IMG/VR virus record: IMGVR_UViG_3300028830_000309
Length of the DNA stretch: 64,000 nucleotides
Source: a virus
Direction: 5' to 3' (one strand)
Below the pieces are notes generated by a model. The model did no database searches. It was not told the origin of the DNA and was given only the letters and a program-made list of their open reading frames with translations. Numbering within the stretch: the stretch's first letter is position 1; the number at the start of each line of letters is the position of its first letter. Positions 1 to 55,817 of this stretch are shown one piece after another. Position numbers and translations under genes: made by a program.

Positions 1-5
1 GCCTC

Positions 6-4051: not shown

Positions 4052-4064
4052 AGAGGTCTAGAAC

Positions 4065-7000
4065 ATGGCCCTAACGATCGGCGAGACGATTCAGGAACTG
4101 CAGCGGGCGTTGAGGGATTACGTGGAGGCGACGTACCACGTCAGCCACCCATTGCTCGTAGCACAGCGACGGGCGCTCCTTGAGCAGCCGGGCGTCATCC
4201 ACCAGCGCCCGTACCTCGAGAGCACGCCTCGATACCAGACCGGCATCCGCTTCAGGGACCTGCACCTCGATTCCGCCGCCGAGGCTGTCTTCTCAGCGGT
4301 CTCGAAGCCCGCAGGAGAACTCGGCATCCTCATTCACGACCCTCCCTACCAGCACCAGGCGAGCGCTACGAAGCTTTCGCTCGTCGACGGTAGGAGCTTA
4401 ATCGTCATGACTGGGACGGGCTCGGGCAAGACGGAGTGCTTCCTCCTGCCGATCCTCGGAAAGCTCGCCCGAGAGGCGAAGGCGAAGGGCCCGGCCTTCG
4501 CGTCCACGCACGCCGTTCGAGCCATGGTTCTCTATCCGATGAACGCTCTGGTCAACGACCAACTCGGACGACTCCGGTTGCTCTTCGGCGACCCGCGCAT
4601 CGTCAAGCAATTCACCCAGTGGTGTGGACGCCCCGCCCGATTCGCTCGGTATACGAGCCGTACCCTCTATCCCGGGGTTCGCAGTGACGAGAAGGACAAG
4701 GACAAGCTCGCCCCGATCGGGAAGTACTACGTGCAGAACCTTGAGACTGCTACCGGACCATCATCGCCGCGGCAGCTTGCGGCCCAACGTCTCGTCGGCG
4801 AACTCAAGAAGCGCGGCAAATGGCCGGCGAAGCCGGACCTCATCGGTTGGTACGGGAAGAAGGGCATGCGTTGGAAGGACGCCAAGACTGGCGTGTTCAA
4901 GAGGTGCGTCACCCTCCCCCACGATCCCGAGCTTCTCACGAGGCACGAGGTCCACGCTGCCCCACCTGACGTCCTCGTCACGAACTACTCAATGCTCGAG
5001 TACATGCTCATGCGCCCCCTCGAGCGCCCGATCTTCGACCACACCCGAGACTGGCTCCAGGCGAACCCTGACGAGCGCTTCCTGCTCGTCATCGATGAGG
5101 CACACCTCTACCGAGGAGCAGCAGGAGCGGAGGTCGCCCTGCTCATTCGCCGGCTGCGTACCAGGCTGGGGATTGGGCCCGAGCGCCTTCAGGTGATATG
5201 CACGAGTGCGAGTTTCAAAGACCCGCAGTACGCCGTCGAGTTCGGGTCGCAGCTCTCCGGAAAGGACCCGAGCCATTTCTCCTCGGTGCAGGGTGATCTT
5301 CTCTTCCGGTCTGGGCCGGCCAGTGGCACGAGGGCGGACGCAGAAGCCCTCGACGCTATCGACCTTCAGAGTTTCTACGAAGCTGCCACCGATGCGGAAC
5401 GCGTCGGACACGTAGCGTCATTCCTCAAGCACCGTGCCGTTGCACCTCCCTGGCAGCTCCAGCCAGCACTCTACACGGCGCTCGAGTCATTCGGCCCGAT
5501 GGCGCGCCTTATCAACGTCACCATGAAGGAAGCGCAGCCCGTCGAGGCTCTCGGTGAAGCTCTCTTCGAAGGCGTCCCCCGTGGTCTCGCAGACCGTGCC
5601 GTGACGAACTTGATCGCCCTTGGGAGTGTCGCGCGACGCGAGCCAACGGAACCTGGTCTTCTTCCGTGCCGCATCCACTCCTTCTACAGGGGTCTTGCTG
5701 GACTTTGGGTCTGCATGGACCAGCAATGCCCTTCCCTCCCGCCGGAGCAGCGCGGAGGCCCCGCGGGTCGTCTCTTCAGTCAGCCACGCGACGCCTGCGA
5801 CTGTGGCGCTCGAGTGCTCGAGCTGTTCACCTGTCGGAACTGCGGCACCGCCTACGGAAGGGCCTACACGAATAACGTCCAGGATCCTAGCTTCCTGTGG
5901 GGGGAGCCAGGCGGAGCGTTCCGTACCCTCGCGGGACAGGTTGACGAACTCGAACCGATCGATCTCCTCCTCGAGCACCCGGTGATATCGACCGAGATTG
6001 AGCCGGCCGAGTACGACCTCGTTACCGGTAGGCTTAATCCGCCTCAGTGTGGCCCGCGCAATCGGCAGCTATTCCTCCGGGGAGGTAGGGCGGCAGCCCA
6101 CCCAGGCGAGGACGAGCCACGGAATACGAGGCCGGGCGAGTTCCGCCCTTGCGCCGTCTGCGGAGAGAAGGCCGCATACGGTAGATCCTCCGTTCAGGAT
6201 CACCAGACGAAGGGCGACCAGCCGTTCCAGGCGTTGATTGCGAAGCAGATCCAGGTACAGCCTCCAAGCCCCGTCGCAGCCACGAGGCTCGCTCCGCTGA
6301 GGGGACGCAAGGTCCTTATCTTCTCCGACTCCCGCCAGACCGCTGCACGGCTCGCACCGAACCTCCAGAAGTATTCGACACAGGACACCCTGCGCCCGCT
6401 CATCGTCTTCGGGTACGGGCGCCTCAGCCAGGCGCCGCCCATGGCGGGCCTTTTATCGCTGGACGACCTCTACCTGGCGGTCCTCATCGCCGCGAAGGAG
6501 CTTGGCGTCCGCCTCCGTCCTGAGTTGAAGGCCGGGGAGAGCTTCGACGATGAGAACGTCGTCGCTGAGGCGGTGAAGAACGGGGCCCTGTCGAGCCCTC
6601 CTGGGCTCCTGTCTCTCTGGGGGCGAATGCGCGCTTCTCGACCCCCCGAGTCGCTTCTCGGAGCGATCGCGAAGGCCGTCACAGACGGGTACTACGGCTT
6701 AGAGTCGCTCGCGATCGCTTCGCTCGTGGAACGCTCGGAGCGGACGCCGAAAATCCACGCCCTACCGGACATTCCAGGTCTAGCAGTCGCCCCCGACCAG
6801 AAGCTGGCCCTCGCTCGAGCATGGATCCGCTGCTGGGGGCGCGCAGGCCTGTGGCTCACCCACATGCCCCCCGCATTGTGGAACACGAAGCGTGAGTTCC
6901 AGCCACGTTCCGGCAAGTTCACGGAGATGAATTCACTACTGAAAGGGAAGCAGGTACGATCCACCTTCGAGAAAGAGTGGCTCCCGCAACTCCTGGCTGA

Positions 7001-9620
7001 CTTCACAGAGCAGTTGTTTCCCGGCAAGCACCGGATGAAAGGCGGGGAACTAGCGCTCTCGATCGGGGGGTCGTGGGCGTACTGCCAGTCCTGTCGGACC
7101 ACGCAGCGCGTGTTCCCGGGTCGGACCACGTGTATCACCTGCGGCGCAGACACCGCGACGCCGATCGACCCTGACACCGATCCCGTCTTCTCGGCGCGCA
7201 AAAGCTACTACCGCGCTAGTACCGTCGATGCTCTCCGCACTCCTCCTGTCCCTCCGATGGCTCTGATCGCCGCCGAGCACACCGCGCAGCTCAACACTGC
7301 GCAGGCGGAAGACGTTTTCTCTAAGGCGGAGGAACACGAACTGCTCTTCCAGGACGTCGACCTCGGCCCGGACGAGACCGGACGTGAGCGCTCGGCGATC
7401 GACGTCCTCTCCTGCACGACGACGATGGAGGTCGGTATCGACATCGGTACCCTCTCCGGCGTCTCGCTCCGGAACATGCCGCCCGCGCGCTCGAACTACC
7501 AGCAGCGTTCCGGACGGGCAGGACGCCGGGGAAATGCTGTTGCAACGGTGACCGCCTTCGGAAGTGCCGACAGCCACGACGAGCATTACTTCACGCACCC
7601 CGATCTCATGATCCGGGGAGCAGTCGATGATCCGACCCTGACGCTGGACAACTACGACATCGCACGGCGGCACGTCACGGCCTACCTGCTCCAGCGCTAC
7701 CACCAAGCGAGACTTCCCTCGATCAGACCCGAAGCCCAGCCCCACCTGTTCGCCGTTCTCGGACGCGTCGTGGAGTTCAAGGACTCGAAGTCACTCCTGA
7801 GCCGGTCCGACTTCGGGCAGTGGCTCCTCTCGAACCAGACCGCCCTTAAAGCCGACGTGGCCGCCTGGCTCCCCTCCGAACTCTCGGCCGCACGGCGGCA
7901 GCGCCTTCTCGACGGTCTCGTCGACGAGACGCTTCGCCCGATCGACGACGCGATCGAATACGACCCAAATGCCGCGGCCGTGAAGAGCGCCCAGGCACCA
8001 GCGGCACCGGCAGATTCTGATGCAGCAGCTGACGAGAAGATCGAGACCACTGATGAGGTCGGCGAGGAGGCTCCCGGACGGGATGCGGCCTCCGAGAACC
8101 TTCTGGACCGACTACTGTACAAGGGTGTGCTTCCAAGGTACGCGTTTCCAACCGACGTTGCAGCGTTCCACGTATTTGATGCTGATCGCTCGACGTTCTA
8201 CCGCCCCGTCTTCCGATTCACACCTTCGCAGGGACTCCCAGTCGCGCTCTCGCAGTATGCGCCCGGGAAGGAGGTCTGGATCGCGAACAAGCTCTGGACC
8301 TCCAATGCGCTCTATTCTCCGATGCGCAACGATCGCTACAAGGCGTGGGAGATCCGGAGGCTGTATTACGAGTGCAGTTACTGCCATTACGCCAACACGG
8401 TGAAACTCACGGATGGAACGAGAGGAGAGTCGAAGGACTGCGAGGCGTGCGGGGGCACGGGCACGTTCGGGCCAGCGACATACTGGTTGCGGCCGCCGGG
8501 GTTCGCTCATCCTGTTAGCAAGGAGGAGGGAACATCTCCAGATGATCAACCCGCGAAGAGCTACGCGACTCGAGCGAAGCTGACAGCTCCAACACCCGCC
8601 GACGCCTCACTGTGGACGCAGGTCAACGAGCATATTCGCGTCCACTACACCAGGCAGCACCTCCTCGTGACGAACAGAGGACCGCGAGACGAGGGGTACA
8701 CCTACTGCACGAAGTGCGGCCTCATCGAGCCTACCGCGCTCCCGAAGGGGGTCGTCGGCGCCTCGCACAGAAAGCCCTACGTCGACGTCCGTGACCCGAA
8801 CTGCCAGGGAGGCGGGGCAACGAAAGGTCTCGTACTGGGCACTGACTTTATTACCGACGTTCTCCTCGTCTCGATGAGCGTGCAACCACCACTCACCCTG
8901 CTACCCAGTCTTCTCGCCACAGACGTCGCACTCCGGACCATGAGTGAGGCGCTGACGAAGGCCGCGTGTGCCCGCCTCGAGTTGGAGGCGAACGAGCTGC
9001 AAGCCGAATACCGGTCAGCGCTCACCCCCGCCGGGCGAGACGGACTCGAAGCTGAAATCTACTTCTACGACACGCTTCCGGGCGGAGCGGGATTCGCGCA
9101 GCGCGTCGGCGACCTCGGCCTGGTCGTGTTCGAAGATGCGCTACGTGTCCTCGAGTCGTGCCCCGAAGACTGCGACCGCTCGTGCTATCGCTGCCTCCGC
9201 AGCTACAAGAACAAATTCGAGCATGACCTACTCGATCGTCACGTTGGCGCCAGCCTCCTTCGGTTCTTGCTCACGGGCGCTCCACCGACTCTTGGCGCTC
9301 GGCGTCTCGCGCAGTCGACGAACCTTCTCTTTAACGACCTCGAGCGACAGGGCGTTACAGGCCTGCGCCTCGAACGAAACACGTCTCTGGCCGTGCCAGG
9401 TATGGCTCCCGTCACCGCGCCAATCCTCGCCACGAACAGTCGGGGGGAGCAGTCAATCATCGATCTGCACGGACCACTGACGCCGGACGATCCGTCGGAC
9501 GCCACGCTCCGAGACGTCCGGGATCGCTCCGCCGCACCGAAGGTCGTCATCGTCGACGAGATGGTCGTGCGCCGGAACCTCCCGACCGCGACCGCCGACC
9601 TCCTTACCAGGATCGGCTGA
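4065..9620 (+). CDS. druE: DEAH-box SF2 helicase with C-terminal DUF1998 Zn module (Druantia DruE-like)
   Basis: 1851 aa. Walker A TGTGSGKTECF, YPMNALVNDQ, Walker B IDEAH, TTTMEVGIDIG, motif VI QRSGRAGRR, several CxxC pairs, and C-terminal CPEDCDRSCYRCL. Confidence 0.8.
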   Translation: MALTIGETIQELQRALRDYVEATYHVSHPLLVAQRRALLEQPGVIHQRPYLESTPRYQTGIRFRDLHLDSAAEAVFSAVSKPAGELGILIHDPPYQHQASATKLSLVDGRSLIVMTGTGSGKTECFLLPILGKLAREAKAKGPAFASTHAVRAMVLYPMNALVNDQLGRLRLLFGDPRIVKQFTQWCGRPARFARYTSRTLYPGVRSDEKDKDKLAPIGKYYVQNLETATGPSSPRQLAAQRLVGELKKRGKWPAKPDLIGWYGKKGMRWKDAKTGVFKRCVTLPHDPELLTRHEVHAAPPDVLVTNYSMLEYMLMRPLERPIFDHTRDWLQANPDERFLLVIDEAHLYRGAAGAEVALLIRRLRTRLGIGPERLQVICTSASFKDPQYAVEFGSQLSGKDPSHFSSVQGDLLFRSGPASGTRADAEALDAIDLQSFYEAATDAERVGHVASFLKHRAVAPPWQLQPALYTALESFGPMARLINVTMKEAQPVEALGEALFEGVPRGLADRAVTNLIALGSVARREPTEPGLLPCRIHSFYRGLAGLWVCMDQQCPSLPPEQRGGPAGRLFSQPRDACDCGARVLELFTCRNCGTAYGRAYTNNVQDPSFLWGEPGGAFRTLAGQVDELEPIDLLLEHPVISTEIEPAEYDLVTGRLNPPQCGPRNRQLFLRGGRAAAHPGEDEPRNTRPGEFRPCAVCGEKAAYGRSSVQDHQTKGDQPFQALIAKQIQVQPPSPVAATRLAPLRGRKVLIFSDSRQTAARLAPNLQKYSTQDTLRPLIVFGYGRLSQAPPMAGLLSLDDLYLAVLIAAKELGVRLRPELKAGESFDDENVVAEAVKNGALSSPPGLLSLWGRMRASRPPESLLGAIAKAVTDGYYGLESLAIASLVERSERTPKIHALPDIPGLAVAPDQKLALARAWIRCWGRAGLWLTHMPPALWNTKREFQPRSGKFTEMNSLLKGKQVRSTFEKEWLPQLLADFTEQLFPGKHRMKGGELALSIGGSWAYCQSCRTTQRVFPGRTTCITCGADTATPIDPDTDPVFSARKSYYRASTVDALRTPPVPPMALIAAEHTAQLNTAQAEDVFSKAEEHELLFQDVDLGPDETGRERSAIDVLSCTTTMEVGIDIGTLSGVSLRNMPPARSNYQQRSGRAGRRGNAVATVTAFGSADSHDEHYFTHPDLMIRGAVDDPTLTLDNYDIARRHVTAYLLQRYHQARLPSIRPEAQPHLFAVLGRVVEFKDSKSLLSRSDFGQWLLSNQTALKADVAAWLPSELSAARRQRLLDGLVDETLRPIDDAIEYDPNAAAVKSAQAPAAPADSDAAADEKIETTDEVGEEAPGRDAASENLLDRLLYKGVLPRYAFPTDVAAFHVFDADRSTFYRPVFRFTPSQGLPVALSQYAPGKEVWIANKLWTSNALYSPMRNDRYKAWEIRRLYYECSYCHYANTVKLTDGTRGESKDCEACGGTGTFGPATYWLRPPGFAHPVSKEEGTSPDDQPAKSYATRAKLTAPTPADASLWTQVNEHIRVHYTRQHLLVTNRGPRDEGYTYCTKCGLIEPTALPKGVVGASHRKPYVDVRDPNCQGGGATKGLVLGTDFITDVLLVSMSVQPPLTLLPSLLATDVALRTMSEALTKAACARLELEANELQAEYRSALTPAGRDGLEAEIYFYDTLPGGAGFAQRVGDLGLVVFEDALRVLESCPEDCDRSCYRCLRSYKNKFEHDLLDRHVGASLLRFLLTGAPPTLGARRLAQSTNLLFNDLERQGVTGLRLERNTSLAVPGMAPVTAPILATNSRGEQSIIDLHGPLTPDDPSDATLRDVRDRSAAPKVVIVDEMVVRRNLPTATADLLTRIG

Positions 9621-9638
9621 GCGAAGGAGGGCGCGGAT

Positions 9639-10865
9639 ATGACGTCTCCAGAGTCGGCGTCCCCCTGGACGACAGACATCCCCGCTGCGTGGCCCAGTGC
9701 CCCGGCGGACATGACAGTAACGACCTTGGTAGACATGGAGGGGTGCCCCCGTCGGTGGGCAATGAGTGCAGCTGAGTACCCAGCGCTCTGGCAGGGTCGC
9801 GGATATCCGCCTCCCCTCAACTCTCAGGCACTCGCGGGCACCGTCGTTCACATGGCCCTCGAGACCGTATCTCGGGCGCTTGTTCAGGCTGGGTGCCAGT
9901 CAGTGCAGGATCCGTGCGCCCCGCAGGTAATGGGAACACTCGGTGGCTACACGAAGGTGGTCTCCGACTGCATCGAACTCGTGCTCAGCCGTCTTGCCAC
10001 CAATCCCAGGGCCGCACCCCTCCTGGAGGGCGCGGGCAGGGCGCTACGGACTCGCGTGCCCGACTTTCGGATGCGCCTCCAGACGATTCTCTGCCGCACG
10101 AGACTCCCCAATCGGGCTACCTCTTCAGGGCCCACGTACGAGGCGAGGACCCGCAGGCCGCTTCCTTTCGGGTCCTTCTCTGAGATCGAGTTCCGCGCTC
10201 CCGCACTGGGGTGGAAGGGCAAGGCGGATCTCCTTCTTCTCACGGAAGCCGCCTGCGAAATCATCGACTTCAAGACGGGAGCGCACGACGAGAAGCATCG
10301 GTTTCAACTCGAGGTCTATGCGCTCCTCTGGAGCCGGGACAGAGACCTCAACCCTACTGGTCGACTCGCCAACCGGCTCGTGCTGCGATACGAAGCGGGC
10401 GACCTCGAAGTGCCCGCTCCGACCGCTACGTACCTCGACGAGTTGGAACGCACGGTTGTCGCTCGACGCGCTGCGGCACATCTCGCCGTATCCTCACGCC
10501 CTCCCGAGGCACGCCCCCACCCTGATACCTGTCGGTACTGCGGCGTGCGGCAACTCTGCGACCGGTACTGGGTGCCGAAGACACTTGAGGATGTCGCAGG
10601 GAGTTCCGCGAATCGCGATTTCGGAGACTTGGAGGTGCTCGTCAGTGGGAGGCACGGCCCATCGAGCTGGGACGCCGTCTTCACGTTAGGCGCTGGGTTC
10701 CATCCCGGAAAGCATGCTCTCGTTCGTACCAGGGGAAATCATGTCTTTCGGTCGGGATATCGCCTCCGGATCCTGAACGCATCTATCGCCATGGACATCG
10801 ATGACGACGCCAGTCCCGTCGCAGTAACACTCTCCTCACAGAGCGAGGTGTTCGTCGTCGGGTAG
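9639..10865 (+). CDS. RecB/AddB/Cas4-like PD-(D/E)XK nuclease with probable 4Fe-4S staple
   Basis: SD GAAGGAGGG upstream. Motifs CPRRW, GTVVH, GKADLL, IIDFKTG, QLEVYA and C-terminal CRYCGVRQLC. Confidence 0.85.
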   Translation: MTSPESASPWTTDIPAAWPSAPADMTVTTLVDMEGCPRRWAMSAAEYPALWQGRGYPPPLNSQALAGTVVHMALETVSRALVQAGCQSVQDPCAPQVMGTLGGYTKVVSDCIELVLSRLATNPRAAPLLEGAGRALRTRVPDFRMRLQTILCRTRLPNRATSSGPTYEARTRRPLPFGSFSEIEFRAPALGWKGKADLLLLTEAACEIIDFKTGAHDEKHRFQLEVYALLWSRDRDLNPTGRLANRLVLRYEAGDLEVPAPTATYLDELERTVVARRAAAHLAVSSRPPEARPHPDTCRYCGVRQLCDRYWVPKTLEDVAGSSANRDFGDLEVLVSGRHGPSSWDAVFTLGAGFHPGKHALVRTRGNHVFRSGYRLRILNASIAMDIDDDASPVAVTLSSQSEVFVVG

Positions 10866-11244
10866 ACCTGGCTACCGAGTGCATCGAGACGCTGAACGGG
10901 CTCCCGTTGACTTTTTGCGCCAGACGCTGCATGCTGTCAGACGCCGCGACGCCACATTCGCGGCAACCGAATCCACGGGGCTCCAAGAGCGGGCCTCAAA
11001 AGCGAGGAGGATAGCGTGGCCAAACATTCTGTTGAGTATTTGCCCTGCGTAGGACGCTTCAGCGTCCAGTGCGGGGTGTTTGCGTTTTCGCGCCCTCCAC
11101 CAGCCCGATCCCCCCACGGGCTCGTCCACATCCCGACGTCGACTTTCACCCGTCAGCCGCCCCCGAAGGCGGAGACCCACGCCAACCGAACGGACCCTGT
11201 ACGGGAGTGCCAATAGCGCGCTCCCCAATAGAAGGCAACAAAAC

Positions 11245-13008
11245 ATGAACGCTAAGACATACAAGAGTGACCTCGATAAGCAGACCGAATACGCCGAGAA
11301 GACGGACGCCGACAAGCTGGTGCTGATCGCCCCGAAGTCCTTTGTCCAGGGCATGCGCGATAGCGGCTACAAGTCGACCGCGACCGCGCTGGACGAGTTC
11401 ATCGACAACGCGATCCAGGCCGAAGCCACGCGCGTCGACATCCTCATCGGCTACACGGCGAAGAACACGACGATGAAGAAGCTGGACCGCGAGGCCGGTG
11501 GACTCGTCGCCATCGTCGACGACGGCCACGGCATGACGCAGAAGATGATCCGCGCTGCCGTCCGCTGGGGCGGTACCCACCGCTGGAACGAGCGGGACGG
11601 CATGGGTCGCTTCGGCTTCGGCCTCCCGAGCGCGGCCGTCAGCATCTCCCCGAGCTACGAGGTCTACTCGAAGGTCGCTGGCGGCGAATGGTGGATGGTC
11701 CGCGTCGACCTGGAGTCGATCGGATCCGACGACGCGAGCCACGGCCAGGTGTTCGTCCCCGAGGCGGTGAGCGTGCCGCCCCCCGCCTGGATCCGCGAGG
11801 CGGTCGGGGATCTATCCCACGGAACCGTGATCCTGCTGGATCAGCCGGACCGGCTGACCTCGGGCTTCGTGAACGTCGGAACCTTCAAGGAGAAGATCCT
11901 CCACCACGTCGGCCTCATCTACCGGAACTTCTTCCGCGAGGTGACGATGCGGCTCATCGACACGGGCCGGAAGAACGTCATCACCGAGGTCGAACCGATC
12001 GACCCACTCTTCCTGACGCCCGGCGCGCGCGGATACAACGAGCTCCCGGTGCCGGCCATTGGGCTGCCCGAGGCCACGTTCACGGTGAAGACCAAGGACG
12101 GGCTCTCGACGGGGAGCGTCCGCATTCGCTACGCGCACTTCTCGAAGGAGTTCATGGGCGGCAGGGATACGGCCCGGATGAAGGTCCGCATCGAGAACAT
12201 GGGATTCATCATGGTTCGGAACGGGCGGCAGATCGAAGCCGTCAGGCAGAACCCCTGGTCGGTCCTCATGAACAACGACAAGTTTTGGGGCTGCGAGATC
12301 AACTTCGACGCCGCCCTGGATGAGGACTTCGGCGTCACGACCAACAAGCAGCAGATCAACCCGACGGATCGGATGTGGGACATCCTCGGCAAGAACGGCC
12401 TGGAGAACCAGATCCCCGCGCTGCGGAAGCACTACAAGGACCAGCACGCGAAGGACGCGGCCAGGAAGGACGCCGAGGCGCCGAAACCGTCGGAGCAGAT
12501 CGCCAAGAAGACCGAGAAGTTCCGGAAGAAGCGGACGGTGAAACCCACCCCGGAGAAGCAGCGCGAGAGCGAAGTCCGGATGAAGGAGGAGATCACCAAG
12601 GTCCAGCATGAGACCGGCAAGCCGGCCGACGAGATCGCCGCCGCCATCGAGAACTCGCCCTACAAGGTCGACTTCGAGAACCTGCCGGGCGCTCCGTTCT
12701 TCCGCCTGCTCCTTTTCGGGTCGCAGAAGCGGGTCCTCATCAACTCGGCACACAGGTTCTACACCGACCTCTACTCGGCTCCGGAGACCGACCAGCGCAC
12801 GAAGACCGCCCTCGAGCTCCTGCTCTTCGTCCTGGGGGAGTGCGAACTCGAGACGACGCCGGACAAGGAGCGCTTCTACGTGGGTGAGCGCAACGAGTGG
12901 TCGCTGCGCCTGAACATTATGCTCGAGGAGCTCGACCACTCGGACCCCGTGGACGACATCCGCGAAGAGCTGGAGGCGGAGGTCACGCCGTCCCAGCCGG
13001 CCATGTAG
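11245..13008 (+). CDS. MORC-type GHKL (HATPase_c) ATPase, copy 1
   Basis: Start moved to ATG 11245 (MNAKTY). N-box ALDEFIDNAIQA, G1 IVDDGHGM, G2 GRFGFGLPSA, S5-like domain RNGRQI...DFGVTTNKQ, and a charged coiled-coil. Confidence 0.85.
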   Translation: MNAKTYKSDLDKQTEYAEKTDADKLVLIAPKSFVQGMRDSGYKSTATALDEFIDNAIQAEATRVDILIGYTAKNTTMKKLDREAGGLVAIVDDGHGMTQKMIRAAVRWGGTHRWNERDGMGRFGFGLPSAAVSISPSYEVYSKVAGGEWWMVRVDLESIGSDDASHGQVFVPEAVSVPPPAWIREAVGDLSHGTVILLDQPDRLTSGFVNVGTFKEKILHHVGLIYRNFFREVTMRLIDTGRKNVITEVEPIDPLFLTPGARGYNELPVPAIGLPEATFTVKTKDGLSTGSVRIRYAHFSKEFMGGRDTARMKVRIENMGFIMVRNGRQIEAVRQNPWSVLMNNDKFWGCEINFDAALDEDFGVTTNKQQINPTDRMWDILGKNGLENQIPALRKHYKDQHAKDAARKDAEAPKPSEQIAKKTEKFRKKRTVKPTPEKQRESEVRMKEEITKVQHETGKPADEIAAAIENSPYKVDFENLPGAPFFRLLLFGSQKRVLINSAHRFYTDLYSAPETDQRTKTALELLLFVLGECELETTPDKERFYVGERNEWSLRLNIMLEELDHSDPVDDIREELEAEVTPSQPAM

Positions 13009-13029
13009 GATCCACCATCGAGTCAACTC

Positions 13030-13061
13030 GGGGGGCGGCTCACACCGCCCCCTCTTTTTTT
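13030..13061 (+). terminator. Intrinsic terminator between the two GHKL ATPase genes
   Basis: GGGGGCGG-CTCACA-CCGCCCCC followed by TCTTTTTTT. Confidence 0.8.
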
Positions 13062-13075
13062 ATACGGGAGGGTAT

Positions 13076-14509
13076 CTGGGACGGAGTCGCGAGTCAGAGC
13101 TTGTCCTGGTAGCCCCGTTCCTGGAGGCGTTCCGCGACGCCGGCTATAAGGGGCTGCCCGGCGCGCTCGCGGAGCTGATCGACAACGCCCTGGACGCCGC
13201 CGCGACGCAGGTCGAGGTCACGATCGAGGACGACGGGTCGACCGTCCAGCGCGTGACCGTTCTCGACAACGGCACCGGCATGCCGCCGGATGTCCTGCAA
13301 CTCGCCCTCCAGTTCGGCGGCACCACCCGCGATCGCGACCAGGGGTCGCTCGGTCGCTACGGTATCGGCCTCCCCGGGTCCTCCATGAGCCAGGCCCGAC
13401 GCCTGGACGTCTACACCTGGACGTCGCCCGGGCCATCCTTCCACGCCGCGCTCTCGCTCGACGACGTGCGCGCTGGGAAGCAGCGCGGCATCCCCGTCCC
13501 GAAGCGCGTCCCGTCGCCGGTCACGATCCCCGACTGGGCCCCCACGGGGACGCTCGTCGTCTGGACGTCGTGCGACCGCGTCATCCGCCCCTGGGGCCAG
13601 GGAATCTCCAGGCTCCGCCGCGTCCTCGGACGGACCTTCCGCGAGTCGATCTGGGCTGGCGCTACCATCCGTCTCAACGGCCACGCTCTGGCCGCTGTCG
13701 ACCCCCTCCACCTCCACGAGGAGGACGCAGCCCCGTACGGCCCGCCCCTCACGTTCGACCTCCGCATCGGACGCCGACCATCCCGCGTTACCGTCCGCTT
13801 CTCGGAACTCCCCATCGAGGACTGGCATGGCTACACCCCCGTCGAGAAGCGGCGCCTCGGCGTGACGAAGGGGGCCGGGGTCTCGGTCCTCCGATCGCAG
13901 CGGGAGATCGACGCCGGCTGGTTCTTCATGGGGACGAAGCGCCGGGAGAATTACGACGACTGGTGGCGCTGTGAGGTCGCCTTCCTCCCCGACTTGGACG
14001 AGCTGTTCGGCGTCACCCACACGAAGCAGGGGATCCACCCGACGGAATCGCTGGACGCCGTTCTGACCCCCGACGTGGAGCGGATCGCCCACGCGCTCAA
14101 CCGACGCGTCCGAGACCGCTTCGCGAAGCTGAAGAAGCGGGACGAGGGCCACGCCGTCCGCCGCGCCGAAGCCCACGACCACCTCCTGGAACCCCCTGCA
14201 GGGGGAGGGGATACGAAGCGCTCCACGGGGCCGCTCCGTGGTCTACGCTACCGCGTCGTGCGCGCGCCCATCTCCGACGAACGCTTCTACTCGATCTCTC
14301 GCTCGGGCGACGAGCTGACCCTCACGTTCAACGCCTCGCACCCCTTCGCCGCGGCGCTCGACGGCTCGATCTCGCCCCAGTCTCTCGTGGAACTCCTCCT
14401 CCTCGCGTCGGCCCGCGCCGAGCTCGCCCTGACGACCCGCGGCTCGCAGCGCGCCCTCTCAACCTTCCGAACGGCCTGGAGCAACGCCCTGGCGGCATTC
14501 CTGGGATGA
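13076..14509 (+). CDS. MORC-type GHKL ATPase, copy 2 (start probably non-canonical)
   Basis: The N-box ALAELIDNALDA lies upstream of the track start (13253) in the same open frame. G1 VLDNGTGM, G2 GRYGIGLPGS, RSQREID...ELFGVTHTKQ. Proposed CTG start at 13076 after GGAGG. Confidence 0.8.
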   Translation: MGRSRESELVLVAPFLEAFRDAGYKGLPGALAELIDNALDAAATQVEVTIEDDGSTVQRVTVLDNGTGMPPDVLQLALQFGGTTRDRDQGSLGRYGIGLPGSSMSQARRLDVYTWTSPGPSFHAALSLDDVRAGKQRGIPVPKRVPSPVTIPDWAPTGTLVVWTSCDRVIRPWGQGISRLRRVLGRTFRESIWAGATIRLNGHALAAVDPLHLHEEDAAPYGPPLTFDLRIGRRPSRVTVRFSELPIEDWHGYTPVEKRRLGVTKGAGVSVLRSQREIDAGWFFMGTKRRENYDDWWRCEVAFLPDLDELFGVTHTKQGIHPTESLDAVLTPDVERIAHALNRRVRDRFAKLKKRDEGHAVRRAEAHDHLLEPPAGGGDTKRSTGPLRGLRYRVVRAPISDERFYSISRSGDELTLTFNASHPFAAALDGSISPQSLVELLLLASARAELALTTRGSQRALSTFRTAWSNALAAFLG

Positions 14510-16470
14510 CCTCGGCGCTCGTCCCCTTCACGCCCGCGGTCGGTGACGCCGCCAGCGACCTCTGCGCCTTCGCCTCGCGGATCGCCGCGGGGGACCTCAC
14601 CGGCGCCCGCCGGGACCTCTACGCCCGCTCCTCCGGCACGGCCACGACGCCCGTCCTCCGCCTGCTCGTCGCCCAGAGCCTCCTCGCGGACCTAGCCGAG
14701 CAGGGCTGGGGGATCGAGAGCACCTGCCCGACGATCGCGCTCGTCGCCCCGACCGGGAACGGCAACGCCGCCGACGCCAAGGAGCGGATCCGAAACGCCC
14801 ACTTGGTGGAGCGGAACACTCACCTCCGGCAGCGCCCGGTCCACGAGTTCGTCGCCAGCCTGGAGCAGCGCCGCCTCACCGGTACGGGCTGGCACAGCGT
14901 CTACTCGCTGATGCGCGACGGCAGCAAGCTCGCGGCCTCCCTGCAGGCGGCCGCCCAGTCCACAGATCCTGATCCGCTCCGCGCCGCGATCGACCCGTAT
15001 GTCGTGGCCGTCACGCCGGACGGCATCTGCCCGCACACCGGCCTCTCGCTCGCCGACGTCTGGCGCTACTTCCGCCTGACCTGGGTCAACGCGCCGAAGT
15101 CCGTCCCGGGCCGCTCCATGCCGATCCTGATCCGCGACCGCGCCGCGCCGAACCACCCGGTGATCGGGATCGCGTCGCTCGGCTCGTCCGTCGTCCAGCA
15201 GGGCCTCCGCGACACGTGGATCGGCTGGGACTCAACGACGGTCATCGCCCAGATCGTCGACCGCCCGACCACGACGTGGGCCCGGTGGATCCTCGCGCGT
15301 CTCGACGCCCTCCTGGCCGGGATCGCGACCGCGGACCTCGTCTCGGACGGCACGATCACCCGGCGGGAGATCCGCACGCCGACCGCCGATACCGTCGAGC
15401 GCCTCCGGGCCGCCGGCGTCGAAGCCCGCCGCCTCCACGAGCTCTACCCTGACGCCACGGGCCACAAGCGTGGGCACGAGGACTGGAAGGCCGCCTCACG
15501 CACCCCCCTCTTCACGGCGAAGCGCTGCGAGACCCTGGCGCGGCTCCTCGGCATCCGCCTGGCCGTCGTCGGCGCCGGGCTCACGACCGGCACCCGCGCC
15601 GAGTTGCAGTCCGCCCTCGCGTCCAGCGCGTTCCGCTTCGCGGTCGGCCAGCTCGCCCGGCTCACGAAGGCCGAGCACGTCGGCATCGACATGATGGACA
15701 TCACCGTGTGCGGCGCGATCGCCCCGTACGGGCACCTGCTGGGTGGGAAGCTGGTCTGCGCCCTCCTCACGAGTCCAGAGGTGGTGATCGAGTACCGCCG
15801 CCGCTACGGGGACCAGGAGAGCATCATCGCGTCGTCCGTGGCCGGCACGGCCGTCCGGCGCGCGCCGAACCTCGTCCTCCTCGGGACGACGAGCCTCTAC
15901 GGCTCCGGGTCCAGCCAGTACAACCGGATCAGGATCCCGCTCGCTGAACTCGGCGCGAAGGGCGACGGAGATCTCCGCTACGAGGAACTGGGACTCTCGA
16001 AGGGCTACGGCTCCTTCCACGTCAGCGGCACGACCGTCCGGCTGATCAGTACGCTCCTCTCACGCCGGAAGGGCGGGCGCAAGGTGAACAGCATCTTCGG
16101 CGAGGGCGTGAACCCGCTCATGCGGAAGATCCGCGAGGCGCTGGAACTCCTCGATCTCCCGAGCGACACGCTCCTGCTCCACGGGGCCCAGCGCGTCGTC
16201 TACGGCGTCCCACTCGCCCGGAACTTCCGCGACGTCCTCCTGGGAATCTCCGAGCGCCCGTCGTACTTCCTGCCGCTCGCCCAGGCCGAGCGCGCCACGG
16301 ACGCCCTTGCCGCGTGGTGGCGCCGCCGGTGGCTCGCCGGCCGGATCACGCGCCCGGGCATCCTCGACGCCGTCGCCTCGCACACGCTGTCGTACCCCGT
16401 CCGCCATGGCGCGCGCGTCCCCGACGTCCGGGACGAGGAGCAGGAGACACTCTTCGACGACGAGACCTAA
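14506..16470 (+). CDS. druA: DUF4338 / Druantia DruA-like protein
   Basis: 654 aa, ATGA-coupled to ATPase 2. Motifs DITVCGAIAPYGHLLGGKLV, LGTTSLYGSGSSQYNRI and GxSxGYGSFH match my recollection of DruA/DUF4338. Confidence 0.75.
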   Translation: MTSALVPFTPAVGDAASDLCAFASRIAAGDLTGARRDLYARSSGTATTPVLRLLVAQSLLADLAEQGWGIESTCPTIALVAPTGNGNAADAKERIRNAHLVERNTHLRQRPVHEFVASLEQRRLTGTGWHSVYSLMRDGSKLAASLQAAAQSTDPDPLRAAIDPYVVAVTPDGICPHTGLSLADVWRYFRLTWVNAPKSVPGRSMPILIRDRAAPNHPVIGIASLGSSVVQQGLRDTWIGWDSTTVIAQIVDRPTTTWARWILARLDALLAGIATADLVSDGTITRREIRTPTADTVERLRAAGVEARRLHELYPDATGHKRGHEDWKAASRTPLFTAKRCETLARLLGIRLAVVGAGLTTGTRAELQSALASSAFRFAVGQLARLTKAEHVGIDMMDITVCGAIAPYGHLLGGKLVCALLTSPEVVIEYRRRYGDQESIIASSVAGTAVRRAPNLVLLGTTSLYGSGSSQYNRIRIPLAELGAKGDGDLRYEELGLSKGYGSFHVSGTTVRLISTLLSRRKGGRKVNSIFGEGVNPLMRKIREALELLDLPSDTLLLHGAQRVVYGVPLARNFRDVLLGISERPSYFLPLAQAERATDALAAWWRRRWLAGRITRPGILDAVASHTLSYPVRHGARVPDVRDEEQETLFDDET

Positions 16471-16483
16471 GGAGGGACGCGCT

Positions 16484-17680
16484 GTGGCGACCGTGACGCG
16501 CACGACGAACCCGATCCACTTCGAGGATCTCGAGCCGCACCGCTTCGAAGACCTCGTCCGCCAGCTCATCTACGACCTGAAGGACTGGTCGAGGATCGAG
16601 GGAACCGGACGCGCCGGATCTGACGACGGGTTCGACATCCGCGCCTGGGAGCGCCTGCCCGGCACTACGCCGAAGGGCGAAGGTGCGAGCGAGGACGACG
16701 GAGAGGGCGACGGAGAACTAGCGCCACAAGAGCGCCTCTGGATGATCCAGTGCAAGCGCGAGAAGACGATCAACCCGGCGAAGGTGAAGAAGATCGTCCG
16801 TGAGACATTCGACGCTCCGGAGGAGAAGCCGAAAGCCTACGCGCTGATCGCCGCCTGCGACTTCTCCAAGGCGGCCCGTGACGCCCTCCGGACCGAGATG
16901 GTCGAGCGGAAAGTGGAGGAGCACTTCATCTGGGGACGGAGTGAACTCGAGGACCTGCTCTTCCTTCCGAAGAATGACCACCTCCTCTTCGCCTACTTCG
17001 GCATCTCGCTTCAGGTTCGGCGGCGCTCCCTCCGCGCGGACACCTCGCGCGTTCTCACTCTCAAGCGAAAGCTCGTGAAGGTCCTCGGCGATATCCGTGG
17101 GACGCACCACATGGATGTCCTGATCCGCGACCCGAAGGACACGACCTACCCGGAGATCGACGATCTAGCCGCCTTCAAGAAGAAGCCGAGATGGAAGTAC
17201 CTCCCCTTCGTCGGACACACACCGCCGGGACACGTCGCCTTCATCTGCCGGCAGCGCTTCGCATGGATCAAGCGCGAGTCGAAGGAGTGGGACGTTGTCT
17301 CTGGCCTCGATGCTGGCGGCCACAGCCACGAGATCTACGGACTCAAGGAGCCCTACGAGCGCGACGAGCGCTACCTGAAGGTCTACGCCTTCTGGAACTC
17401 CGTCATTCCCCGCCACGAACGGGCGTGGATGAAGGAACTCTGCTTCATCCCCTACGAGCGGATCTACGCGCTGGACGAGATCGGCGACGCGTACCACCCG
17501 GGCCCGCACCTGCTCGTTGACTTCCTGCCGGACGGCCAGCCGTTCGAACCGTTCGCCTGGTACACGCTCGACCCGGACGATCGGTACTCCGAGCACATCG
17601 GGGCCAATAAGGAACTGCGGCGACATCTATTCCCAGATCCCATTCCAGACCCGCCTGCCGAGGAGAAGCCGACTGCCTAA
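16484..17680 (+). CDS. Mrr-like restriction endonuclease (N-terminal PD-(D/E)XK) with uncharacterised C-terminal domain
   Basis: GTG start after AAGGAGG. Motifs FEDLVRQL, GRAGSDDGFDI, IQCKR and LIAACDFS. Confidence 0.75.
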   Translation: MATVTRTTNPIHFEDLEPHRFEDLVRQLIYDLKDWSRIEGTGRAGSDDGFDIRAWERLPGTTPKGEGASEDDGEGDGELAPQERLWMIQCKREKTINPAKVKKIVRETFDAPEEKPKAYALIAACDFSKAARDALRTEMVERKVEEHFIWGRSELEDLLFLPKNDHLLFAYFGISLQVRRRSLRADTSRVLTLKRKLVKVLGDIRGTHHMDVLIRDPKDTTYPEIDDLAAFKKKPRWKYLPFVGHTPPGHVAFICRQRFAWIKRESKEWDVVSGLDAGGHSHEIYGLKEPYERDERYLKVYAFWNSVIPRHERAWMKELCFIPYERIYALDEIGDAYHPGPHLLVDFLPDGQPFEPFAWYTLDPDDRYSEHIGANKELRRHLFPDPIPDPPAEEKPTA

Positions 17681-17782
17681 ACGGCGCCCCAACGTTCGCC
17701 GCGGATTGCAAGGCGAACTGCGCTCGTCTCCTTGCGCCACCGATCGCCACGACGTTCACTGGGGTAGGTAACACCCCTCCAC

Positions 17783-18238
17783 CTGGCCACCGTCATCTCC
17801 GAGTCCGAGTTCGCCGCAAGGCTCCGCCGTCTCCTCCCACCGATCGGATCGAGGTACTACCGATCGGTAACTGGCCCCGGGAGGAGCGGCGCGATCGCCT
17901 CCGCGTACGCGAGCCACATCCTCGGCATCCCGTGGATCCCCGCCGGAGCGAAGGTGCCCGCGAAGCTCTTGCCCGTCCTCGTCATCGACACGGCGGCCGA
18001 GACCGGACAGACCCTCCGGAAGGCCGCCCGTCGCACTGGTGCCCCGGACCAGGCCGTGTCGACGCTCGCGGTCTACGTGGAACCCCCACGCGTGCGCTTC
18101 TGGTACGAGGAGCCGTTCGTGCGCCCGTACCTGGCCATCAAGCGCGAGACGGTCGCCCGAACCGCCAAGATGCCGGCGAATGATCCTTCGCTCCTCGACC
18201 ATGACTCGCAGGACGAGATCAACCCGGAGCTGTGTTGA
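17783..18238 (+). CDS. Type I phosphoribosyltransferase-like protein
   Basis: Frame open from a TAG at 17765; proposed CTG start. VTGPGRSGAIASAYASHILGIP and a PRPP-loop-like VLVIDTAAETGQTL. Confidence 0.55.
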   Translation: MATVISESEFAARLRRLLPPIGSRYYRSVTGPGRSGAIASAYASHILGIPWIPAGAKVPAKLLPVLVIDTAAETGQTLRKAARRTGAPDQAVSTLAVYVEPPRVRFWYEEPFVRPYLAIKRETVARTAKMPANDPSLLDHDSQDEINPELC

Positions 18239-18390
18239 TGCGGTCACCAGCGATCCGGACACTTGAGGATCGATGACGACCCGCAGTATGGAGACACGGA
18301 CGTTTGCAGTGACGACTGCAGCTGCCTCCGCTTCCGTCCTTGCCCAACGCGCTCCCTACTGCGGCGCCTCGCAGACCTCATCCGCCACTC

Positions 18391-18756
18391 ATGACCACCA
18401 CCCTCGGCCAGACCATCCGGAAGCACCGCGAAGCCCTCGGCCTCTCGCTCCGCGTCTTCGGCCAGAAGGCCGGCGTCCACGCGCCCTACATGAGCAACAT
18501 CGAGCGCGGCACGAAGACCCCGCACGATGCCCTGCTCCTCCGCATCGCTGCAGCCCTCGGTGTGAAGGGAGATGAGCTGCTTCACCTCAGCCCCTACGTG
18601 CCCGTCCCAGCCCTCCGCGCGCGCTGCAAGGAGGATCCAGAGCTGGCCTACGCAATACGCGTCATCCTGCGCTGGAAGATCAGCGGGGAGGACCTTCTGG
18701 CCCTCCCCAAGATCCACGGTCACCTGACGCGAAAGGTCACCGCGGCAGGATCCTAG
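18391..18756 (+). CDS. XRE-family helix-turn-helix regulator
   Basis: LGQTIRKHREALGLSLRVFGQKAGVHAPYMSNIERG. Confidence 0.85.
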   Translation: MTTTLGQTIRKHREALGLSLRVFGQKAGVHAPYMSNIERGTKTPHDALLLRIAAALGVKGDELLHLSPYVPVPALRARCKEDPELAYAIRVILRWKISGEDLLALPKIHGHLTRKVTAAGS

Positions 18757-18810
18757 TTACGCACCTGACACGGTGCAAAACTTGTTCATAAGCTGCCAGG
18801 AGGTTCGGAT

Positions 18811-20961
18811 TCAACGGACGGCCACCGTCACATGGAAGGTGCCCGTCATATCGGCGTCTCGACTACCCACGAAGCTCTCCACGAACAGGACGAGTCGTCC
18901 GGATGAAGGAGACTTGCCGCGGAAGTTTGATCCAACGCGGAAGCTCTGAATGAGGTTTTTCATCCCTCCCGGAGGCTGAATGACCGCTCGGACCGCGCCC
19001 ATGGCGGTGTTGAACCGCTTCGTACCATCTGGCGGGTAGCACGGGCCCTTGTCAGACGCCTTGCGCTTCACGTAGCAGACCTCCCCCGTTGCCGTGATGT
19101 GCAGCGTGGCTCCGGCGGGCACGTCGATGCCGGTGTCTAGCTCACGGGTCGGGCGGACCTTGAATGCCTTCGCCCCCGGCTCCATCGTCGGAGTAGGGAT
19201 CGCGGCCTGGACGGTGGGTACGGCGGTCGCTGGAACAGCCGTTGGGACCACCGGCGCCACTTCGGTCGGGACGGGAATCGCGACGGTAGGAAGCGGATCG
19301 ACCACCGCAGCGTCAGTCACTGGCGCCGCTGCCGTGGGCTCCGCGGCAGGTGTCGACGGCGTCGGTGCGAGGTCAGCGAGGTTGGCGACCGGCTTCACCT
19401 CGATCTTCGACGGGGTCCACCCGGGTCGCCCCTTCTCCTCGTAGTGGATCAGCCCGCCCGCGATCGGGAGGAACCAGATGTAGTCGCGCCGTCCGGGCTC
19501 AATCAGCCTGAGGTTCGTTGCGTCCGCGCCGGCCTCCAAGAAAGGCCGATCGCCGTTCGTGCCGTGGAGCACCCAGCCGTCCGCCTGATGCTCGAAAGTC
19601 CCGAGCGACGATGTGAACGCAGCAGGCAGCGGGACGGGCGTGGCCACCGGCGCGGCGGGTGCTGGCTTCTGGGCGACGGGCGCCGCTGGTGCAGGAGGTG
19701 CCGGCTGGCGGGAGCGGTAGAACCCGTACACAACAACGGCCACGGCGATCAGGACGAGCGCGTAGAACGGGTTGACCTGCATCGAGGCCGTCTTCTCGGC
19801 GACGGTCGTCGGCGCGCCGGTCCCCTTCGGCGTGCGGTCCCGCGCGATCTGGTCACCGAGCGTGCGCCACCTGACGATGGCGCTCTCCTTTGCGTCAGAT
19901 GTGAATCCGCAGTGGTCGAGGATTGCCCGCTCCAGGCCATCGAGTTCCCGGAGCCACGCGTCCAGCTGACGGGACGCCTGGGGCGTTCCAGACGGGCGCA
20001 GCCTCGATTCGGCTCTCCGTCTGATCTCGTCCTGCCGCGCCCTCAGCCGTTCGATCTCGGCATCGTTCGCGCCGCTGGTCTGGATGAGCCGCATCGTCGT
20101 GATTTCCGCCTCGATCCGCTCGACCTCGTCCTGGGTGTCCTTGTAGCCCGGCTCACTCCCGCGGATCACCTCCTTGCGGCGTCCCGCCGCTGAGATGGCG
20201 GCGTAGTAGAGAGGCATCACGGCCTCGGCGAACTCCTCGTACCCGTCTCTCGCCCCATAGTCGACTGCCTCGGCGGCGGACGACGTCTGATGCCGGAGGA
20301 GGCTGAGTGCCACCTCGTCCTGTTCGGCGAGCAGCTTCGCTCCCGGATCGGGGTTCGCGCGATTCACCGAGATCTTCTTTTGGAGTGCGATCTGCTGCTG
20401 GACGACGCTCCCAAGCTCCGTGCGAAGTCGCTGTGCGATCTCTTGCTGGATCCTGTCACGGGCCTCCCCGAAGGCGAGGACCTGCTCCCTCACGATGTTC
20501 GTGAGGTCCGTTCCCGACGAGAGCGCATCGAACACGCCGCTCTTCTTGAGGAGGAGCGCGATCGCGAGAATCACGCCGCCGACGAGGAACCAGCCGAGGA
20601 GTTGGAGGTCCCTCCCCATGATCAGCTGCACGCCCCAGGCGGCGATGATGATCAGGAAGAAGGCGGCGCAACCGATCTGCAGGATGCCGCCGGTGACGTT
20701 CGCGGCGACGTCGACAGCCTTCCCGACCTCCTCCTTCGTCGTGACGTTCCGCCGCCTGGCCTGCGCCGCCTTCTCCAGGCTTTTCGCCCGGAGGGCAGAC
20801 GAGATCGCGTCAAGGCTGCTCGGCCGCTCCAGGCCCGCCGCGAGCCGGAAGAGCTTCTCAGCGTCGACGCAGGGTTTCCCGTTGAGGAGGAGGTGCTTCG
20901 TCGCGACGCTCCGCCCAAGCCCGTAGACAGGGTTCGCCTTGTTGGCTTCCGCAGTGGCCAT
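18811..20961 (-). CDS. Three-TM membrane protein with coiled coil, Pro/Ala/Thr linkers and C-terminal LecA/PA-IL-like beta-sandwich
   Basis: ATG 20961 with SD GAAGGAG. Two TM helices, a coiled coil, a third TM helix, PAT-rich linkers, then DTGIDVPAGATLHITATG...FRVG...GRLVLFV...GTFHVTV. Confidence 0.6.
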   Translation of the reverse strand: MATAEANKANPVYGLGRSVATKHLLLNGKPCVDAEKLFRLAAGLERPSSLDAISSALRAKSLEKAAQARRRNVTTKEEVGKAVDVAANVTGGILQIGCAAFFLIIIAAWGVQLIMGRDLQLLGWFLVGGVILAIALLLKKSGVFDALSSGTDLTNIVREQVLAFGEARDRIQQEIAQRLRTELGSVVQQQIALQKKISVNRANPDPGAKLLAEQDEVALSLLRHQTSSAAEAVDYGARDGYEEFAEAVMPLYYAAISAAGRRKEVIRGSEPGYKDTQDEVERIEAEITTMRLIQTSGANDAEIERLRARQDEIRRRAESRLRPSGTPQASRQLDAWLRELDGLERAILDHCGFTSDAKESAIVRWRTLGDQIARDRTPKGTGAPTTVAEKTASMQVNPFYALVLIAVAVVVYGFYRSRQPAPPAPAAPVAQKPAPAAPVATPVPLPAAFTSSLGTFEHQADGWVLHGTNGDRPFLEAGADATNLRLIEPGRRDYIWFLPIAGGLIHYEEKGRPGWTPSKIEVKPVANLADLAPTPSTPAAEPTAAAPVTDAAVVDPLPTVAIPVPTEVAPVVPTAVPATAVPTVQAAIPTPTMEPGAKAFKVRPTRELDTGIDVPAGATLHITATGEVCYVKRKASDKGPCYPPDGTKRFNTAMGAVRAVIQPPGGMKNLIQSFRVGSNFRGKSPSSGRLVLFVESFVGSRDADMTGTFHVTVAVR

Positions 20962-21120
20962 GTTCGCTCCTTCGGACGCCCGGCGCGGGAGCCACACGCT
21001 CCGCTACACGGTGGAGCACCAGCAGGGATCCGATGCTCGTTCGTGCCGGGGTTCCCCGGAGTGTAGCGCCTCGACGGTCTCGCGCGTCTCCCTGAAGCTG
21101 AGGGCGAACCCCATGTCCTG

Positions 21121-55341: not shown

Positions 55342-55358
55342 GGTGGTGAGGTAGGTAG

Positions 55359-55817
55359 TTACTTCGTGGGTTCGGTGGCGTTCTGCGGTCTGCCGTGCGA
55401 GCACTTCGTGACGCTGACGCCGCTCATCGGCGGGAAGAGCGCGGCAAAGACTTCTCCGGCCGGAACGCGATGCGGCCACTCGACGAGTTCACGTACGGCC
55501 TGGGCGGCTTGCTCTTCCAAGCTCGATGTCTTCCCACCCTCCAGTTCCTTCAGGATGCTGCCGAGGAGGGACATCGCGACTCGGATGTCCGTCGCGTCGG
55601 CCCGGTTGAAGTCCAGTTCCACGCCCGAGATCACGGCGCCGGCCTTCACGAGCCCGAGTTCCACCGGCTGGTCGATGCGCACCTTCCCCTCGTGGATCGT
55701 GATGGTGCGATGGAGCGACGCGTCCTTCCCACTCTTCCGGCGCAGCGTGAGTTCGTAGCGCTTCCCCTGGATGGGCGTCAGCTGGACGGACGTGGAGTGC
55801 GACATGGGGGTGAGCAT
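55359..55817 (-). CDS. Hypothetical protein between groES and groEL
   Basis: 152 aa; overlaps the upstream small ORF by 1 nt (TAATG). Confidence 0.6.
   Translation of the reverse strand: MLTPMSHSTSVQLTPIQGKRYELTLRRKSGKDASLHRTITIHEGKVRIDQPVELGLVKAGAVISGVELDFNRADATDIRVAMSLLGSILKELEGGKTSSLEEQAAQAVRELVEWPHRVPAGEVFAALFPPMSGVSVTKCSHGRPQNATEPTK

Follow-up and report, generated by a model that had tools for sequence, protein, structure and literature searches.

The 64,000-nt stretch analysed here (IMG/VR virus record IMGVR_UViG_3300028830_000309, hereafter the window, whose positions serve as coordinates throughout) comes from a bioreactor metagenome, belongs to a siphovirus-like phage or prophage and carries eight closely packed genes within 1-17680, all on the plus strand (Table 1). 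Among them are DruA, the signature protein of type I Druantia and thus of a founding member of the 2018 defence-system catalogue, and two ATPases of the GHKL type, A1 and A2. The original prediction had singled out four of these genes, at 11245-17680, as a module of two paralogous MORC-type ATPases, a DruA-like protein and a restriction-like nuclease. All four are present, the ATPases at full length, and their open reading frames (ORFs) are co-directional with coding-type composition (G+C content at third codon positions, GC3, 0.84-0.95). The proposed translational coupling of A2 to DruA is seen as an ATGA overlap of stop and start at 14506-14509, and an ATGA overlap also joins X985 to DruD. 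The distance from the end of DruE to the start of A1 is 1.6 kb and that from DruE to DruA 4.9 kb, all in one co-directional cluster.

Table 1. Features of the DruA-containing gene cluster in the window
Feature	Position	Strand	Remarks
X985	6-2963	+	985 aa, distant DruB-like, first gene of the helicase cassette; GC3 0.71
DruD (type I)	2960-4051	+	PADLOC DruD1 E 1e-111, 363 aa
DruE, type I YprA-family helicase	4065-9620	+	DruE1 1941 bits; Pfam DEAD, Helicase_C, MZB
PD-(D/E)XK Cas4-like nuclease (DruK-like)	9639-10865	+	PDDEXK_1 E 5e-18; PADLOC DruK 5e-14, also Cas4
Spacer upstream of A1, 379 nt	10866-11244	.	Weak terminator-like hairpin at 10895-10908
A1, accessory GHKL+S5 ATPase	11245-13008	+	587 aa; HATPase_c_3 E 3e-16; GC3 0.92
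Terminator-like GC hairpin and T run	13030-13062	+	A1-A2 gap; stem 13030-13053
A2, core GHKL+S5 ATPase	13076-14509	+	477 aa, predicted CTG start; HATPase_c_3 E 8e-23; GC3 0.89
Long DruA	14506-16470	+	654 aa; N-domain 1-168, helical insert 253-393, GNAT-fold core
Mrr_cat-type restriction-like nuclease	16484-17680	+	398 aa; neighbour, not a conserved component

DruA is recognized by the PADLOC model DruA1 (E 1e-162) and by the Pfam model DruA (E 1.5e-30, 106.8 bits against a 27-bit cut-off), and it is not orphaned in the window, because the genes immediately upstream encode DruD, DruE1, a DruB-like protein and a Cas4-like nuclease. The helicase matches DruE1 over its full length and DruE2 with 640 bits, and the DruD gene call is backed by an exact-match look-up. 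X985 gave no Pfam, PADLOC or PHROG match, and none to PADLOC DruB even at E 10, but a DruB-like alignment matches its central part, residues 384-686 (hhalign probability 90.9, E 1e-6); with a DruC-like alignment there is no relation (hhalign probability 0.5). The earlier view that DruA stands here without DruB, DruC and DruD has to be given up, and so has the label druFGE for the upstream genes, of which the 363-aa protein is DruD1 and the helicase DruE1. These two PADLOC matches likewise rule out type II Druantia (DruF/G). X985 stands ahead of DruD-DruE in about 30 loci, and at least 8 related loci have the Cas4-like nuclease gene after DruE. Upstream of the window, the neighbouring 7 kb contain small phage-type genes and no further Dru genes.

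Relatives of A2 were sought with a pattern scan over one genome for each of 185,579 species, which yielded 298 stretches encoding such proteins; the best 80 of these 298 loci, with 10-kb flanks, form the survey set. DruA follows A2 in all 78 loci where the DNA continues, across many phyla. Pairwise distances across the 19 loci that have all three proteins correlate strongly between A2 and DruA (r 0.93) and weakly between A1 and A2 (r 0.30) or A1 and DruA (r 0.27). The complex model of A2 (residues 135-477) with DruA reached, in terms of the model's own confidence, an ipSAE of 0.66 versus 0.13 for the best control, with 100% contact agreement over three runs and a partner predicted local distance difference test score (pLDDT) of at least 79. 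This mark was reached by 58/80 solved complexes and 2/110 mismatched pairs, counts that apply only approximately here, since the model was run with our own alignments.

The predicted contacts join A2 residues 221-235 and 325-340 to DruA residues 117-129 and 627-631, and the A2 interface helix has a family-specific conserved pattern that is not present in A1. The canonical type I locus of P. putida pKF715A encodes a 409-aa DruA and no ATPase. Since this short DruA aligns to the long DruA only at 169-252 and 394-604, only the long form has the N-terminal domain (1-168) and the helical insert (253-393), and the predicted docking residues of DruA fall outside the regions alignable to the ATPase-less protein. 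An X985-centred search of 401 Acidobacteriota genomes found two loci with the order short DruA-X985-DruD-DruE and no ATPase. The ATPase therefore goes with the long DruA and not with the helicase cassette, and type I loci that are canonical in other respects can have X985 in place of DruB and DruC. An X985-DruD-DruE cassette beside a short DruA, without a GHKL ATPase, is the arrangement of loci L099 (G400) and L100 (G335).

Both ATPases have the intact boxes that had been claimed for them, EFIDNAIQA (N), DDGHGM (G1) and GRFGFGLPS (G2) in A1 and ELIDNALDA, DNGTGM and GRYGIGLPG in A2. These motifs are invariant across both family alignments, as is the S5/transducer lysine (K317-Q318 in A2, K368-Q369 in A1), and the motif pairs DFGVTTNKQ/LFGVTHTKQ and INSAHRF..ELLL/FNASHPF..ELLL were found exactly as described. 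A1 and A2 share 28% identity over about 400 residues; A1 consists further of a basic linker and the C-terminal domain common to A2, and the two families align over 479 profile columns including that domain (hhalign probability 100, E 4e-71). In a fold search the A2 model (pLDDT 82) matched MORC3/4/2, ParE, Hsp90 and MutL at E ~1e-12, with about 400 columns and a target-normalised template-modelling score of ~0.5 against the MORC3/4/2 ATPase modules. The model thus supports a MORC/Hsp90/MutL-like fold for A1 and A2, in line with the MORC-type assignment made earlier, with Hsp90, ParE and MutL tying with the MORCs. MzaB is the best named profile match of both ATPases, but membership was rejected on scores far under the cut-off and partial profile coverage (PADLOC 2e-12 and 3e-14; NCBIfam 55 and 76 bits vs 850 bits); PADLOC found no MzaA, C, D or E gene at the locus.

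The start of A2 needs comment. The first ATG, GTG or TTG of its frame is GTG 13253, already past the N-box. CTG 13076 is preceded at 3-4 nt by the Shine-Dalgarno (SD) sequence GGGAGGG, the closest relative has TTG at exactly the same position, and from this start the homologues span 98-100% of the A2 query. We therefore predict that the full ATPase needs CTG 13076, the only start that fits the homologue N-termini. The public gene calls for A2 take GTG 13253, by which the ATP-binding N-box is lost. An assembly error at this point was ruled out, as an independent Logan assembly is identical there.

The strong hairpin between A1 and A2 has 9 pairs, 8 of them G-C, followed by CTTTTTTTAT, and most A1-A2 loci of other phyla have a similar GC-rich hairpin in the same gap. 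Such hairpins lie 15-40 nt before the A2 start in the window and in L018, L026, L028, L042, L053, L066, L080 and L083. The element could act as an attenuator that sets the ratio of A1 to A2, or could gate the expression of A2-DruA. An Rfam search of 10700-18900 gave no match at E up to 1.

The AlphaFold2 model of DruA (pLDDT 89.6, predicted template-modelling score 0.89) found nothing significant in the PDB by Foldseek, where only weak malonyl-CoA decarboxylase and HAT1 matches appeared. By exhaustive structural alignment, DruA residues ~158-590 superpose on GNAT folds. The top match is phage Mu Mom (Z 9.3, 173 residues aligned), and 14 chains reach Z ≥ 8; the top matches are all GNATs, with 131-177 residues aligned in those listed and a sequence identity of 6-14%. 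Ordinary acetyltransferases score at Z ~8, within 1 Z unit of Mom, and are to be regarded as tied with it. A strand-loop-helix bearing G413-G414-K415-L416 is placed where GNATs bind the pyrophosphate of CoA, and P407, Y408, G413, G414, K415 and L416 are invariant. The result agrees with Krishnan et al. 2024 (PMC10853773), who termed DUF4338 a GNAT. On the strength of the model DruA is probably a GNAT-fold acyltransferase.

The A2-DruA pair is found with different partners. The closest relatives of A2 (55% identity) lie in loci of the order A2-DruA-X985-DruD-DruE and A2-DruA-589aa-679aa-339aa-DruE, the three proteins named by length having the positions and sizes of canonical DruB, DruC and DruD. 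In the survey set, the X985-DruD-DruE cassette, with or without the Cas4-like nuclease, was found at ~32 loci and a divergent DruB-DruC-DruD-DruE cassette at 6. The third kind of partner is a second GHKL ATPase without a helicase, either of the A1 type or of a third family together with an unknown 200-235-aa protein. A1-type orthologues were present in 20/80 loci, usually with a gene for an extracytoplasmic function (ECF)-like sigma factor before A1; an A1-type and an A2-type ATPase with a long DruA were recovered in L018, L026, L036, L071, L083 and others. Compared with the sigma-led, helicase-less cassettes, the window has no sigma gene (the ORF list shows no ORF of ECF-like sigma type in the spacer 10866-11244) but has a helicase cassette directly upstream.

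The two kinds of partner alternate almost exclusively. Among the 45 loci with ~8 kb readable on both sides, 27 have only a helicase cassette, 16 only a second GHKL ATPase, one has both and one neither (Fisher 4e-10), and in phylogenetically independent pairs the two are opposed in ~6/9 (median p ~0.03). Partner architectures are interleaved on the DruA tree. Compounds of a helicase cassette and a second ATPase are rare (the window, L018 and L039), and modules of two ATPases with DruA and no DruE within ~8 kb occur in at least 12 other genomes. The free-standing ATPase-ATPase-DruA module that had been proposed hence exists elsewhere, but in the window it has a Druantia cassette upstream. In some loci A1 is found downstream of DruA, on one strand or the other, and most loci have A2 alone; together with the r of 0.30 this makes it unlikely that the originally suggested A1-A2 heterodimer is obligate. 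Judged by sequence comparison, A2 and DruA are inherited together as a unit, and A1, like the helicase cassette, is a partner that can be exchanged, because the correlation of 0.93 stands against 0.30 and 0.27 and the position of A1 varies.

Some loci of the survey hold further genes. The third GHKL family, 27-29% identical to A1, stands beside A2-DruA in L006, L007, L020, L021, L039, L046, L047 and L048, and is paired in the first five of these with a 195-235-aa protein without Pfam or PADLOC match. A conserved ~350-aa protein, also without a match in Pfam or PADLOC, is encoded directly 3' of DruA in L055, L056, L061, L063, L068 and L070, mostly from Myxococcota; in L056, L061, L068 and L070 a DruB-like or X985 gene comes after it.

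The slot after DruA is variable. In the window it holds the Mrr-type nuclease gene, which is SD-led as predicted, with a GTG start (16484) 7 nt after AAGGAGG, scores above the Pfam cut-off for Mrr_cat (25.9 bits, E 1.2e-5, vs 21 bits) and has a putative D...QxK motif readable in the translation (DDGFDI ... IQCK). Its place as a fourth component of the module was not upheld: tblastn found no homologue in the 80 related loci, and the family of ~1950 proteins is stand-alone, beside unrelated genes. These two results rule it out as a conserved component, and it would be an independent restriction-like gene that landed in the slot. Elsewhere the slot holds genes for a ThsB-like TIR protein, a KAP NTPase, short prokaryotic Argonaute (pAgo)/TIR proteins of SPARTA-like type, or unknowns. 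SPARTA-like short pAgo and TIR-APAZ genes directly follow a helicase-less A1-A2-DruA in L050, L053 and L083 (about 13530-16490), the ThsB-like TIR protein occupies the same slot in L026, and the KAP NTPase in L030.

The phage genes of the window comprise those for terminase, portal, capsid, tape measure and tail proteins, an amidase, a Rad52-like protein and an exonuclease, and the locus lies between phage early genes and the terminase, portal, capsid and tape-measure genes. The A2-DruA pair is also present on four IMG/VR contigs. The runs found to contain the sequence of the window are four DNA runs from a single bioreactor metagenome study, all with the same sequence, and no RNA run is among them. 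Between the defence locus and the terminase, the minus strand encodes at 18811-20997 a protein of 728 aa that contains hydrophobic segments as well as linkers rich in Pro/Ala and for which no Pfam match was found. Further minus-strand genes at 53734-55479 and 59646-61918 encode a GroEL-type chaperonin (PHROG 5725, E 2e-147), the Rad52-like protein and the exonuclease.

We read the region 6-17680 as probably one compound locus, a prophage-borne variant of type I Druantia built around a GHKL-DruA core, because of the DruA1, DruD1 and DruE1 matches and the A2-DruA synteny in 78/78 loci; from these relationships we infer a function in anti-phage defence. What had been put forward as a candidate new anti-phage system thus survives in part, for the DruA-GHKL unit is real and recurrent, but in the window it belongs to a variant of type I Druantia. 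The conserved core is the pair of A2 and the long DruA. A2, as a MORC-like, ATP-gated dimerising ATPase, would use its S5-domain hairpin and the next helix to bind the N-terminal domain that only the long DruA has. Controlled by ATP, the A2 dimer may close on DNA or on a target bound to DNA, and its closure may position or license acyl transfer by DruA, a step that would sense or mark the invader (or self). The output would come from exchangeable partner modules, in the window the helicase cassette of X985 (DruB-like), DruD, DruE and the Cas4-like nuclease, and the paralogous ATPase A1, which elsewhere replaces the helicase cassette and is usually accompanied by the ECF-like sigma factor. Domain identities, synteny, co-variation, the predicted A2-DruA interface and the GNAT fold were obtained by computation; DNA clamping, the acyl-transfer substrate and the order of events are what we infer from them.

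Several observations weigh against a single Druantia variant. DruC had no PADLOC match and no other candidate ORF in 1-17680 or in the 7 kb upstream, and the gene order X985-DruD-DruE-nuclease-A1-A2-DruA is unlike DruA-B-C-D-E; the closest relatives have A2-DruA first. Terminator-like hairpins stand 3' of the Cas4-like gene and of A1, the CTG start may mean low or no expression of A2, and the score of the A2-DruA complex, being a model's confidence, is not a measurement. To our knowledge type I Druantia has no known mechanism, and no experiment is known for any GHKL-DruA locus. Moreover, GC3 is 0.71-0.76 from X985 to the Cas4-like gene, 0.89-0.95 in A1-A2-DruA and 0.94-0.97 in the phage structural genes. 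Because of this break and the terminator-like hairpins, the two halves may have separate histories and may act separately; the break suggests that the helicase cassette arrived later.

The main rival, which we regard as unlikely, takes this separation literally and sees two independent adjacent systems, a self-sufficient defence module A1-A2-DruA, with or without Mrr and lacking a helicase, in keeping with the original prediction, and a separately acquired neighbour, X985-DruD-DruE-nuclease, within one phage defence island. It gains from at least 12 loci in which A1-A2-DruA lacks DruE over ~8 kb or more on both sides, some of which adjoin SPARTA, a ThsB-like TIR protein or a KAP NTPase in a defence-island context, and from L019, an A1-A2-DruA locus that is the nearest relative of A1, A2 and DruA alike; the GC3 break between the halves and the hairpins at 10895 and 13030 point the same way. 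On the other hand, every surveyed helicase cassette adjoins a DruA and the window has one DruA only, so two systems would leave the cassette without a DruA of its own. The ECF-like sigma gene usual before A1 in helicase-less modules is absent, and the Mrr gene is not conserved with the A1-A2-DruA module.

Two other explanations are less likely. Loss of the A2 start (TTG to CTG) could have inactivated A2 in a decaying locus where only the helicase cassette or the Mrr gene works, which is improbable: there is no canonical start before the N-box, and the GTG 13253 of the gene callers removes that box, but the frame is open at full length with all family-invariant residues, has a good SD sequence 3-4 nt before the CTG, keeps a coding-type GC3 of 0.89 and recurs unchanged in the four DNA runs of the same study. 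Even less probable is a benefit to the phage, in which a Mom-like DruA would acyl-modify DNA by means of GHKL clamps as a counter-defence against host restriction. Mom as the best structural match of DruA, the position of the locus just upstream of the packaging genes and the phage-like GC3 of A1-A2-DruA are in its favour, but ordinary GNATs score within 1 Z unit of Mom, in effect a tie, almost all homologous loci lie on chromosomes and have Druantia helicases or other defence genes linked to them, and DruA belongs to a defence system that has reportedly been validated experimentally.

Under the preferred reading, one compound variant type I Druantia locus, three leads emerge. For the long DruA, a MORC-like ATPase is predicted to be an obligate physical partner; the DruA fold is that of a GNAT and may be Mom-like; and A2-DruA would plug into either a helicase cassette or a second ATPase. 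MORC-type ATPases serve genome defence in plants and animals, and the locus would be a bacterial setting in which such an ATPase works with an acyltransferase. A bolder and rather doubtful extension is that DruA is a Mom-like DNA acyl-modifier loaded by a MORC-like ATP-gated clamp, so that such loci, and by extension type I Druantia, would practise a non-methyl, acyl-mark form of restriction-modification or mark-and-cut immunity. If true, the acyl mark would be read by exchangeable effectors, namely DruE with the Cas4-like nuclease, a second MORC-like clamp, or Mrr-type modification-dependent nucleases.

Our results also bear on annotation. The original prediction knew of no described system that pairs DruA with two MORC ATPases and lacks DruB, DruC and DruD. 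No PADLOC, Pfam or NCBIfam model covers DruA with a GHKL ATPase, and the literature searched contained nothing linking Druantia with GHKL, MORC or paraMORC proteins, so the GHKL-DruA pair is apparently undescribed in print. DUF4338 itself is mentioned in four papers of that literature, one of which classes it as a GNAT. PADLOC, Pfam and NCBIfam name only part of the locus, and because of this automated annotation will call such loci incomplete Druantia. The analysis contributes the near-exclusive alternation of partners, the weak co-variation of A1, the predicted A2-DruA interface and the fold evidence.

Several known systems resemble parts of the locus. Iyer, Abhiman and Aravind 2008 (PMC2292703) described prokaryotic MORC/paraMORC ATPases in restriction-modification-like operons, with GHKL+S5 ATPases linked to superfamily II helicases and restriction-fold nucleases, and operons with two GHKL families, MORC and paraMORC1; a GNAT/DUF4338 partner or a sigma factor is not mentioned in that paper. 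The window likewise combines GHKL+S5 ATPases with a helicase and a restriction-fold nuclease, but its helicase is of the YprA/DruE type. It differs from the MZA system in that A1 and A2 match MzaB only far below the cut-off and no Mza partner genes accompany them. With Mom and other GNAT acyltransferases DruA shares the superposable core (~158-590), from which it departs by a large insertion of helices and by additional parts at both its N- and C-terminus.

The closest comparison is with type I Druantia itself, reportedly an experimentally validated defence system made up of DruA-DruB-DruC-DruD-DruE. The window has clear DruA, DruD and DruE homologues and a distant DruB-like protein on one strand in one cluster, but lacks DruC and has a Cas4-like nuclease after DruE. 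Its DruA is the long form (654 vs 409 aa), which has an N-domain and a helical insert in addition and is always preceded by a GHKL ATPase that the canonical system does without. Finally, the gene order of the window is permuted, with DruA in last place and a second GHKL ATPase inserted.

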